Shown here piece by piece: positions 1-3,000 of a stretch of 43,774 nt of DNA (position 1 is the stretch's first letter; the number at the start of each line of letters is the position of its first letter). The DNA lies in assembly GCA_038127595.1 (NCBI GenBank), contig JAYPIC010000009.1, forward strand, positions 1 through 43,774, read 5' to 3'. The position numbers were made by a program. The stretch is from a bacterium (GTDB lineage: Bacteria; Fidelibacterota; Marinisomatia; Marinisomatales; UBA1611).

Positions 1-3000
1 GTCATCTATCGCGCCTGTGTATACTAGCCTATCATTAGCATCAAAAAGATATACATGAGGAGTTTTCATTGCTCCAAATGCCTTTGCCAATTTAGCATCT
101 TCATCCATAACGTATGGAAAGTCATATTCATTTGCCGTAGCATGATAAATCATCTCATCCATGCTATCGACACTATCATGAAGCCTGGCATTAGAATTAA
201 CAGCCACAAAACCAATATCATTTTTTTTACTCAAAGCAGAAATCAAATTATATCTATCCTGCCAACGAATGACCCAAGGACAGGTGTTACAACTAAAAAT
301 AACTAAAACACCATTAGCTTTTTTTATTTTATCTAAAGAAGTGTTTTTACCATCAATATTTTGTAAAACATAATCACCTCCAGGCAACTTAGCATTTATG
401 TCTAGATTTCTAGCTTGAACATTGAAAATTATAACTGCAAATAAAAGCATAAATCTTATAATCATGAACATTATCCTTTCTTTAATAGTAATGAATCTAT
501 TTTAAACTTAAAAAAAATTTCATCTCTTTTGCCCTCCCAATAGGCTTTAAGATTGAGATTCTTGTCATAAATTCCTGTAAATGGTAGCACGCCACTCCAT
601 GATTGGCTTATGGAGTTTATAAAGTTTTCATCATCGCCTTCTTTTTTTCTGTAATGCTGCCCGATCACATTTTGTTCCTTCAAAAACTGCATTACCTCCA
701 ATTCATTTTCATCCCAATCGGTGCTTAAGAAAACAACATCTAAATCCTTAGCATCGTATTGCTTTTCAAGATTAACAATATATGGAAATTCTTCCACGCA
801 TGGTAAACACCAAGTCGACCAAACATTAATCAAAATGTACTCTGAGGAGTTATTTTTTCTAATATTTTTAAACAGTTGATCTGCAGTTACAGTATCAACA
901 TTAAAATCATAAGAAGAACAAGAAATTTGGGTGATGACTAAAATTATATTGATATATTTTTTCATTATTAAAATTTAATTCAACTTTTGAAAAACAATAA
1001 AAGGTAAATAATTAAAGAATATTTGATGTTTATTTATTTTTGGATATAATATTTATTGTGTGTATTTCATTAATTAAAAGAAAGGAGGTGATCAGTTGTC
1101 TAATTTTATAATAACGCTGACCTCCAAAGGATCAGCTGCGTAACACACCTAAGAGTTGAAACCTTTTAGGAGGTCAGCGTTCACTTTGTATTAAAAAACC
1201 CTCGCAAGCCGAGGGTTTTTTAATTAACCATTTATATATTTATTTAATGAATCAAGAGATTCAAAAACATTACGCCCTGTCTTTAATAATCTTTCGCGAC
1301 TAACATGGCCAATGTCAACCAAAACGCAATGGACACCCATTTGTTCAGCAACATCACTATCGTGCACTGTATCGCCTATAAGCAATATTTCCTTTTTAGG
1401 GGTGTCTACTTTAGATAACCAATTTAATCCAGCATCTGTTTTACCATCAGCTGCATCATTTTGAATCCCAACTATTGCATTAAAATAATGATCAATTTTA
1501 TGGTGAGCTACCCAATCAATTAATGAATCTTGCTTACCGGCAGATAAAATAGACTGGGTAAGCCTGTTATCTCTATTTTTTTTTAAAACTTCATGTACAT
1601 GTTGATGAAGATTGCATTTTTTAAAATAATTTCTGTAATAATTTAAAAATCCTGGGATCGGGAATTTTTCTTTTGAAAAATCAAAGCCCAGGTGTTCGTA
1701 ATACTTTATAACAGGAAAGGTAAATATGCTTTTGTAGCTTTCCTTATCAACCTGTGACATTCCCCTTGACTCTAAAACAAAATTAATTGATTCAATGCAT
1801 AGCCATAGATCATTGAGGAGTGTGCCATTCCAATCCCAAACAATATGTTTATATCTCATGGTTATTTTATAGATGTTTAAGGAGAATAAATGTAAAACCA
1901 GAAAAAAAATTAATTAGATAATTCCTCTTCTACTTTTTTTTCTATTGATTTAATAGCGGAGTCTTTTACCTTTTCGCCTGTTTTTGAAACAGCATCTTTC
2001 AAAATTTCTGCTGATTTAGATACTTGTTTGGAAATTTCAGCTGTGTTTTTACCTGTATAATGTAAATACGCCACATACAGTATAAATACAGATACTGTCA
2101 CAAGAGCTAACTTTATAATTTTCTTTACGAAACCATATACTATTACTATAGCTAAAACAACGGCAATTGCTAGATATACTGGATTAGATGTGATTGCTTC
2201 AATTATATTTTCCATCTACTTATTCTTTCATTTCAATTTAATAAGTTATATTGAAACTTAAATTATCACAATAAAACTACAGGCAATATGAAAAAAATTA
2301 TAACGATAATTATAGTTTCTCTAATTTCAGCTCAACCTGAGACCCCTGCTGACTCTTTATTAAAATCAAACAAAACCTCTATTTTTCAAAAAGCTTTTAT
2401 ATTTCCAATAGTCCAATGGCAAAAAATATCTTATAAATCAGAAGCATTTAATTGTCAATTTTACCCTAGCTGTTCTAATTACTGTAGTTTAGCGATTAAG
2501 GAATACGGCTCTCTGTATGGTACAATAATTGGATTAGATCGAATCACTAGATGTAATCCATCTGCACTTTACTATCATCAAAAAATAAATGGCTCATATA
2601 AAGATGAAGACGGCCGATTAATTGATTATGTAAGCCCAACCTTTTACCACAAAGGGCATAAATCGACAGTACTAAGTACTGTACTCGCTATAATCCCAGG
2701 AATGGGAAAAATCTATTCTGGCAGAGTATATGATGGTATGTATGGCGCATTAAATTTATTTGCTTCCTTAAAAGCATATTCATTTGCCAAAGAAAATCAA
2801 AATAAAATAATGATGAATGTTTTTGGTACAACCTCGCTGATTTTTTATATATCAGACATTTATGGTTCCTGGAGAGCTGCAAAGTATTACCAGCCAAAAA
2901 AGATAGAATCTCATGAAAAATAAACCTAAGGGTTCTTAAAGTAGGGTGGAAAAATTACCACCCTACTTCTTTACACGATAAATTCCATTTGGAATTTAAG

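Follow-up and report, generated by a model that had tools for sequence, protein, structure and literature searches.

The window, i.e. the whole 43,774-nt stretch of DNA analysed, carries near its left end a unit of about 165 nt on the forward strand, located between a gene for a redoxin/thioredoxin-like protein (positions 471–965, reverse strand) and one for a HAD-family hydrolase (positions 1224–1859, reverse strand), its divergent and convergent neighbours, respectively, neither of which is a conserved context. From 5′ to 3′, the features on the forward strand comprised a -35-like hexamer, TTGATG (1023–1028), a -10 box read either as TATAAT (1045–1050) or as TAATAT (1047–1052), an extended Shine-Dalgarno (SD) sequence AGAAAGGAGGTGATC (1079–1093), an ORF of 15 codons (1096–1143) with a TTG start, Ser as the second codon and a TAA stop situated within a stem-loop, the two arms of a long stem (1116–1125 and 1169–1178), and an intrinsic terminator hairpin (about 1190–1224) with A/U tracts on both flanks. 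The sequence confirmed the boxes, SD, ORF, stem and terminator at the places given in the earlier note. The -10 region is a conserved upstream motif, since, of 146 distinct upstream sequences, 144 had a TAnnnT ending 43–50 nt 5′ of the start codon (26–68 of 146 for other 8-nt windows), and inspection by eye revealed TTG-type hexamers 16–18 nt 5′ of the -10 in many relatives. Transcription is predicted to start at about 1057–1059. The terminator hairpin, absent from the list of a simple terminator scanner, could also terminate the convergent HAD gene. Folding of the unit was compared with that of shuffled sequences (z = -5.98), and 0 of 200 shuffles were as good. From the sequence, we infer that the unit is a real small gene with its own sigma-70-type promoter and terminator. 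Part of the stretch was present in 12 RNA runs, of which 4, picked for their small shares, were examined: in three, the SD and ORF were covered by no contig (in one of them, contigs entered just the 3′ part, from the side of the HAD gene), and the fourth had contigs over 1016–1162 that began upstream of the promoter and delimited no discrete transcript. Short structured RNAs are frequently missing from such RNA libraries. Two other RNA genes scored above their Rfam cut-offs in the window, a tRNA gene (3001–3074, reverse strand) and a tmRNA gene (43271–43626, reverse strand).

Over its 15 nt, the SD is perfectly complementary to the 16S rRNA 3′ end from a same-genus genome and from two other genomes of the order (the 16S 3′ end was present in three of the five genomes searched), in agreement with the complementarity claimed before. 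The pairing extends to UUUCU beyond the anti-SD core of 16S, and the 12-mer core of the SD occurred once in the 2.0-Mb genome. For the SD:16S duplex, -27.1 kcal/mol was predicted, against -16.8 for the best of 1742 long ORFs and a median of -4.2. In relatives, the complement was 13–15 nt long, ended 2 nt 5′ of the start codon and covered the whole single-stranded tail. Among 129 distinct copies, the two outermost complement positions varied freely, and all 31 of 31 changes at SD positions -15 to -13 (A), which are those left free by the search patterns, were A to G, retaining a G·U pair opposite a 16S U. A duplex with a bulge that takes in the start codon and enters helix 45 could also be computed, but the spacer varies and this duplex was not relied on.

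The length of the ORF, claimed earlier to be fixed, was indeed nearly constant. At 37 genome loci, there were 34 ORFs of 15 codons, two of 16 and one truncated; at least 120 metagenome matches, three of them truncated, yielded 117 complete ORFs, all of them of 15 (105) or 16 (12) codons. Starts were TTG in 60 and GTG in 6 of 66 distinct ORFs, with TAA, TAG and TGA stops in 57, 6 and 3, respectively. No premature stop was found in 28 ORFs, compared with 7.7 expected by column resampling, a rough test in which kin are not independent; out-of-frame stops, seen in 28 of 28, came largely from invariant bases and were not counted as evidence. The pN/pS ratio was 1.4 over the 28 genome ORFs and 1.3–1.9 among close metagenome pairs, and the invariant peptide residues fell in the RNA stem without synonymous change. 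Between lineages, the peptides were unrelated and of 11–31 residues. Since the peptide drifts while the frame, stop and SD pairing are kept, the RNA rather than the peptide is likely to be the effector; translation over 15 codons seems to be under selection, and the sequence of its product not, with the exception of Ser at codon 2. The RNA/peptide family proposed earlier gives the peptide too much weight, as no purifying selection acts on the peptide sequence. The C-terminal Ala-Ala of this copy was considered as a degron and rejected, as codon 15 takes 11 different residues. No conserved slippery run indicative of frameshifting was present in the alignments.

Two alternative folds are predicted for the RNA. 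In one, the 5′ arm of the long stem, which includes an internal anti-SD (1120–1125), pairs with the 3′ arm, itself SD-like; in the other, the anti-SD pairs with the SD to give an SD hairpin, supporting the earlier proposal that the 5′ arm can alternatively pair with the SD. Folding of 34 RNAs predicted the long stem with p > 0.8 in 31 of them at full length, and a caged SD with p > 0.5 in 28 when they were truncated behind the stop codon. For this copy, the caged state was computed to cost 11 kcal/mol and opening of the ribosome site 4.6 kcal/mol. In all 66 distinct metagenome copies, 7 or more of 8 pairs could form with a 3′-arm partner. Judged by general footprint sizes, the stem would start at the edge of the initiating ribosome's footprint. 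It had been held that the long stem gave no covariation; comparison with Nitrospinota copies over ORF bases +21 to +29 revealed 97.6% pairing and two-sided change in 6 of 9 pairs, a signal that beat 500 of 500 shuffles and all slid registers and that reflects mostly one split between phyla. The outer pairs swapped freely, and the inner hexamer was SD-complementary in 56 of 56 copies. In the SD/anti-SD helix, one-sided G·U changes were observed and no two-sided covariation.

A covariance model matched 33 of the 54 genomes of the own family, reproducing the count reported earlier; 32 matches were credible, each in single copy, and among the 33 one was doubtful (21 bits) and two were split or partial. 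Across the order, the element was carried by 32 of 150 genomes and confined to 4 of 16 families, and it was absent from two well-assembled genera. The number of gene contexts was at least 10, extending the movement between at least six neighbourhoods that had been noted. The downstream gene was often on the opposite strand and differed between genera; together with the number of contexts, this largely rules out a cis leader. In the contexts seen, the element never adjoined rRNA or biogenesis genes. A search of plasmids gave head matches only.

We conclude that the element is very probably an rre-like ribosome-docking RNA. The small mRNAs rreB and rreR were described in Alphaproteobacteria by Hahn et al. 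(RNA Biol 14:1353; PMC5711450). According to that paper, rreB is a 165-nt mRNA with a 17-nt SD, a GTG start and 14 codons; it co-sediments with 30S, is weakly translated (fusions are translated), occurs in growing and stationary cells while being far scarcer than ribosomes, and persists for 37 instead of 10 min once the start codon is removed. The most upstream complementary bases determine its ribosome association, and a 20-fold overexpression had no growth effect. RreB and RreR are unstructured and mutually unrelated; similar genes were reported there in Alphaproteobacteria only, and the role, a functional peptide included, was left open. The two small mRNAs and the element have in common 1) a stand-alone unit of about 165 nt with its own promoter and terminator, in a context not conserved between lineages, 2) an SD directed at the whole 16S tail, with the same spacing to the start, 3) a near-cognate start, Ser as the second codon and a short ORF (14–18 codons) of lineage-fixed length, in the register of rreB-type loci, and 4) an internal sequence that would cage the SD, here by the predicted alternative fold. 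They differ in that the element starts with TTG, rarely GTG, whereas rreB has GTG; that its complement is 13–15 nt and halts at the base of helix 45, whereas those of rreB/rreR are 16–17 nt and reach into the start codon, the 15 nt found here falling short of the perfect complement of at least 16 nt, first start-codon base included, used by Hahn et al.; and that, unlike in rreB/rreR, the full-length fold is predicted to be the long stem and not the SD hairpin.

No homology to the rreB/rreR bodies was detected, the scores being 22–26 bits, within those of ordinary strong-SD genes (up to 27.6), and profile scores being -34 and -53 against -40 for a control. In Rfam, the element was the sole match in the genome to CC2171 (RF01867), over model positions 1–159 at 25 bits (E 0.002; cut-off 75); loci matching the rreB primers reached 45–52 bits on the same model, and CC2171 thus looks like the Caulobacter rre. 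The head of the CC2171 consensus, SD-start-Ser, is the same as that of the element; Rfam lists CC2171 as a non-coding sRNA, whereas the element has a 15-codon ORF. CC2171 has also been validated by Northern blotting in Methylorubrum (10.1101/2022.01.24.477521). The claim of a new family holds in a narrow sense: the element is a lineage-specific sequence type, but the class is already published as rreB/rreR, and CC2171 matches over the whole model. It is best filed as a variant that would work like rre.

The element had also been described as a family of Marinisomatales, but it is not confined to that order. A head-motif scan of named genomes, with a pattern that forced Ser2, gave ORFs of 12–31 codons in 115 of at least 120 matches, mostly of the 18-codon rreR type, and reached beyond Alphaproteobacteria into Gemmatimonadota, Nitrospinota, Phycisphaerae (Planctomycetes), Gammaproteobacteria and one member of Bacillota. 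Without the forced Ser2, 53 of 81 Nitrospinota and 24 of 101 Gemmatimonadota genomes were matched, with 0 matches in reversed controls, and short ORFs were present in 25 of 25 and 23 of 24 loci fetched, respectively. Like the element, the Nitrospinota copies had TTG TCT, gap-free colinearity to codon 10, a stem from ORF base +21/22 containing the anti-SD core, and a terminator; their ORFs had 13–15 codons in the 25 loci fetched (of 54 matches). They differed in swapped outer stem pairs, a shorter loop and genomes that keep HPF. An intermediate form was found in one genome from another order of the own class. The literature searched, with subscription papers mostly outside it, contained no rre outside Alphaproteobacteria and no rre function. 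The extended SD alone was rejected as diagnostic, since most viral-contig matches to the SD plus GTG/TTG were ordinary genes. Larger rre-like units were seen on viral contigs L051, L081 and L035 (13 and 11 codons), with an anti-SD-like motif about 100–125 nt downstream, and at phage loci L071, L101 and L045 the extended SD was followed by ORFs of 3–7 or 20–24 codons just upstream of longer genes, possibly translational leaders.

Within the own family, canonical HPF, the standard protein that protects ribosomes, was present in 1 of 32 carriers versus 13 of 22 non-carriers; with a divergent second type included (four in carriers, two in non-carriers), the figures were 5 of 32 versus 15 of 22. 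This second, short HPF type (L442, L443, L444, L445 and L448) occupies different loci in two of the family's genera and may have been re-acquired after loss of the ancestral copy. One divergent HPF match had been flagged for an internal stop, which turned out to be merely a C-terminal stop. HPF is normally encoded 3′ of pckA; in the own genome, pckA lies directly beside metH, and neither tblastn nor a profile search of the genome found any HPF. Among the 39 scorable of 43 family genomes with a pckA match, 21 of the 22 carriers had an empty ancestral pckA-hpf site and 12 of the 17 non-carriers a filled one; the other five non-carrier genomes, in which it was empty, are 55–83% complete. A second family repeated the pattern: HPF was missing from 7 of 8 carriers (five of them tested after the idea had formed) and present in 22 of 23 non-carriers. 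The ribosome silencing factor RsfS, taken as a control in the own family, gave no such pattern (28 of 32 carriers versus 18 of 22 non-carriers); rsfS lies on the same contig (window positions 26287–26565, forward strand). In the pckA-metH gap where relatives have hpf, a SAM_alpha (SAM-II type) aptamer was observed upstream of metH, outside Alphaproteobacteria (L490:1790–1866 on contig C91; 35.6 bits with a cut-off of 36, E 1e-6).

The association was not uniform. HPF was retained in 4 of 4 and 7 of 8 carriers of two further families, in 77 of 81 Nitrospinota genomes and, alongside an rre-type gene, in Caulobacter. One family of 26 genomes, which are 0.7–1.1 Mb in size, has neither HPF nor the element; over the whole order with this family included, the association was not significant (nominal p 0.06), and without it the figures were 16 of 32 versus 81 of 92. 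Of the 24 rhodopsin-bearing genomes of the order, 23 were without HPF and 18 of these also without the element, and HPF-less carriers had a lower GC content. The association persisted among rhodopsin-negative genomes outside the small-genome family (15 of 26 versus 81 of 89), but surface-ocean lifestyle may still confound the HPF pattern. Perhaps four to five independent HPF losses occurred, as counted on a quick single-gene tree that is poorly resolved and in which kin are not independent. In Nitrospinota, a long HPF frame (183–200 aa) occurred in nine genomes (G343, G348, G353, G366, G374, G375, G377, G402 and G408), none of which had the element, and the HPF frames of element carriers were short; the nine may be one clade and are not taken as support.

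The best explanation, to which we give rather less than an even chance, is an rre-type RNA that would hold idle 30S subunits by their 16S tail, be set free and broken down upon its translation, and be partly redundant with HPF. The RNA would be transcribed from its own sigma-70-type promoter to the terminator, as conservation suggests, and would adopt the full-length fold, in which the long stem is computed to hold the internal anti-SD and leave the ribosome site cheap to open. A 30S subunit would then be caught by a 13–15-bp duplex over the whole free 16S tail, and initiation would be slow owing to the long duplex, the near-cognate start and the stem at the footprint edge, as shown for rreB. 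The bound duplex would hide the 16S 3′ end from RNase R, so that idle subunits would be parked and protected. In favour of this step count the protection of 30S from RNase R by an SD oligonucleotide in vitro, the presence in the genome of a gene resembling that for RNase R (456 bits, short of the equivalog cut-off) and the HPF pattern. According to the study that reports the oligonucleotide (PMC10901742), decay of 30S by RNase R sets in at the anti-SD, and loss of HPF leaves 16S exposed to this enzyme. Upon successful initiation, the ribosome would open the stem and halt at codon 16, and the freed anti-SD would refold onto the SD, whereupon the RNA would be released and decay. The peptide would be a by-product, by analogy with 6S RNA, which mimics a template to hold a core machine and comes free through synthesis of a short product RNA whose sequence does not matter. 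6S RNA acts on the polymerase, whereas the element would act on the ribosome. With HPF/RaiA, the element would share the proposed role of shielding the 16S 3′ end of idle small subunits from RNase R; HPF/RaiA is a protein, whereas the element is an RNA for which such a role is proposed from the comparative HPF pattern. According to a recent preprint, more than 10% of bacteria have lost ancestral hibernation factors, and substitutes as yet unknown are predicted (10.1101/2025.11.04.686544). Counted against the model were the scarcity of rreB and its lack of a growth effect on overexpression, the outcome of the RNA runs, the HPF-keeping carriers, the order-wide test, the lifestyle confound, the small number of independent losses, the one-sided changes in the SD/anti-SD helix, the single split behind most of the stem covariation and the failure to detect body homology to alphaproteobacterial rre.

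The same scarcity of rreB would fit a regulator better than a stoichiometric guard. An rre-class RNA could sense the supply of free ribosomes or the capacity for initiation and act in trans, translation exposing the anti-SD or the SD-like arm, which would then pair with other mRNAs or bind a protein; the HPF pattern would be an ecological coincidence. The invariably SD-complementary hexamer (56 of 56 copies) and the rhodopsin and GC confounds are in line with this. We consider it doubtful, as no Hfq or CsrA match was found in the 96%-complete genome, the intramolecular switch already accounts for the anti-SD, and the HPF association persists among the rhodopsin-negative genomes. Somewhat less probable still is a small-protein gene, in which a 15-residue peptide effector would be dosed at a very low level by way of the extended SD and the TTG start codon. 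Conservation of frame, length and stop is in line with this, as are the translation of rreB fusions and the pN/pS of 0.5–0.7 in the Nitrospinota copies; in addition, Ser2 occurs in 62 of 66 copies here and, for two other phyla, in 23 of 23 and 21 of 23, compared with 9% among 74 ordinary genes sharing this SD. Against these stand the pN/pS of 1.3–1.9 in this lineage, the confinement of invariant residues to the RNA stem, the unrelated peptides of the different lineages and the lack of structure in RreB and RreR.

A guide for 16S 3′-end maturation or quality control, pairing across the junction between the mature tail and the precursor trailer, would account for a complement reaching UUUCU past the anti-SD core, and it would fit the deciding part that the most upstream complementary bases play in the ribosome association of rreB. 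It is nevertheless very improbable, since the two outermost positions are free to vary in 129 copies, the element lies beside no rRNA or biogenesis gene in the contexts seen and is missing from most families of the order, and the ORF would be left unexplained. Hardly credible is a cis attenuator or leader peptide for the neighbouring gene, and the same holds for a selfish mobile unit or the gene of a type I toxin. Weak Rfam matches to His, Leu and Phe leaders (22–28 bits) point that way, as do the changing neighbourhoods and patchy distribution; the former are far below the cut-offs and due to the hairpin-plus-terminator shape, no regulatory codon run or fixed same-strand biosynthetic operon was found, the orientation of the downstream genes largely refutes a leader, and the peptide is short, polar and unconstrained and the element single copy.

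These results place the rre class in another phylum, with cross-phylum support for the stem, and suggest, on comparative sequence grounds, that the peptide sequence of an rre-class element is dispensable. They also provide, among the literature found, the first link between the rre class and HPF loss. It is possible, though unlikely, that rre RNAs are widespread, overlooked RNA hibernation factors, the ribosome's equivalent of 6S RNA, that let several marine lineages delete hpf. If clamping of idle 30S subunits by the element is true, an RNA substitute for a hibernation factor would be of a new kind, and since rre-type genes occur in Caulobacter, Bradyrhizobium and roseobacters, the function of this obscure, apparently widespread class would be directly testable.
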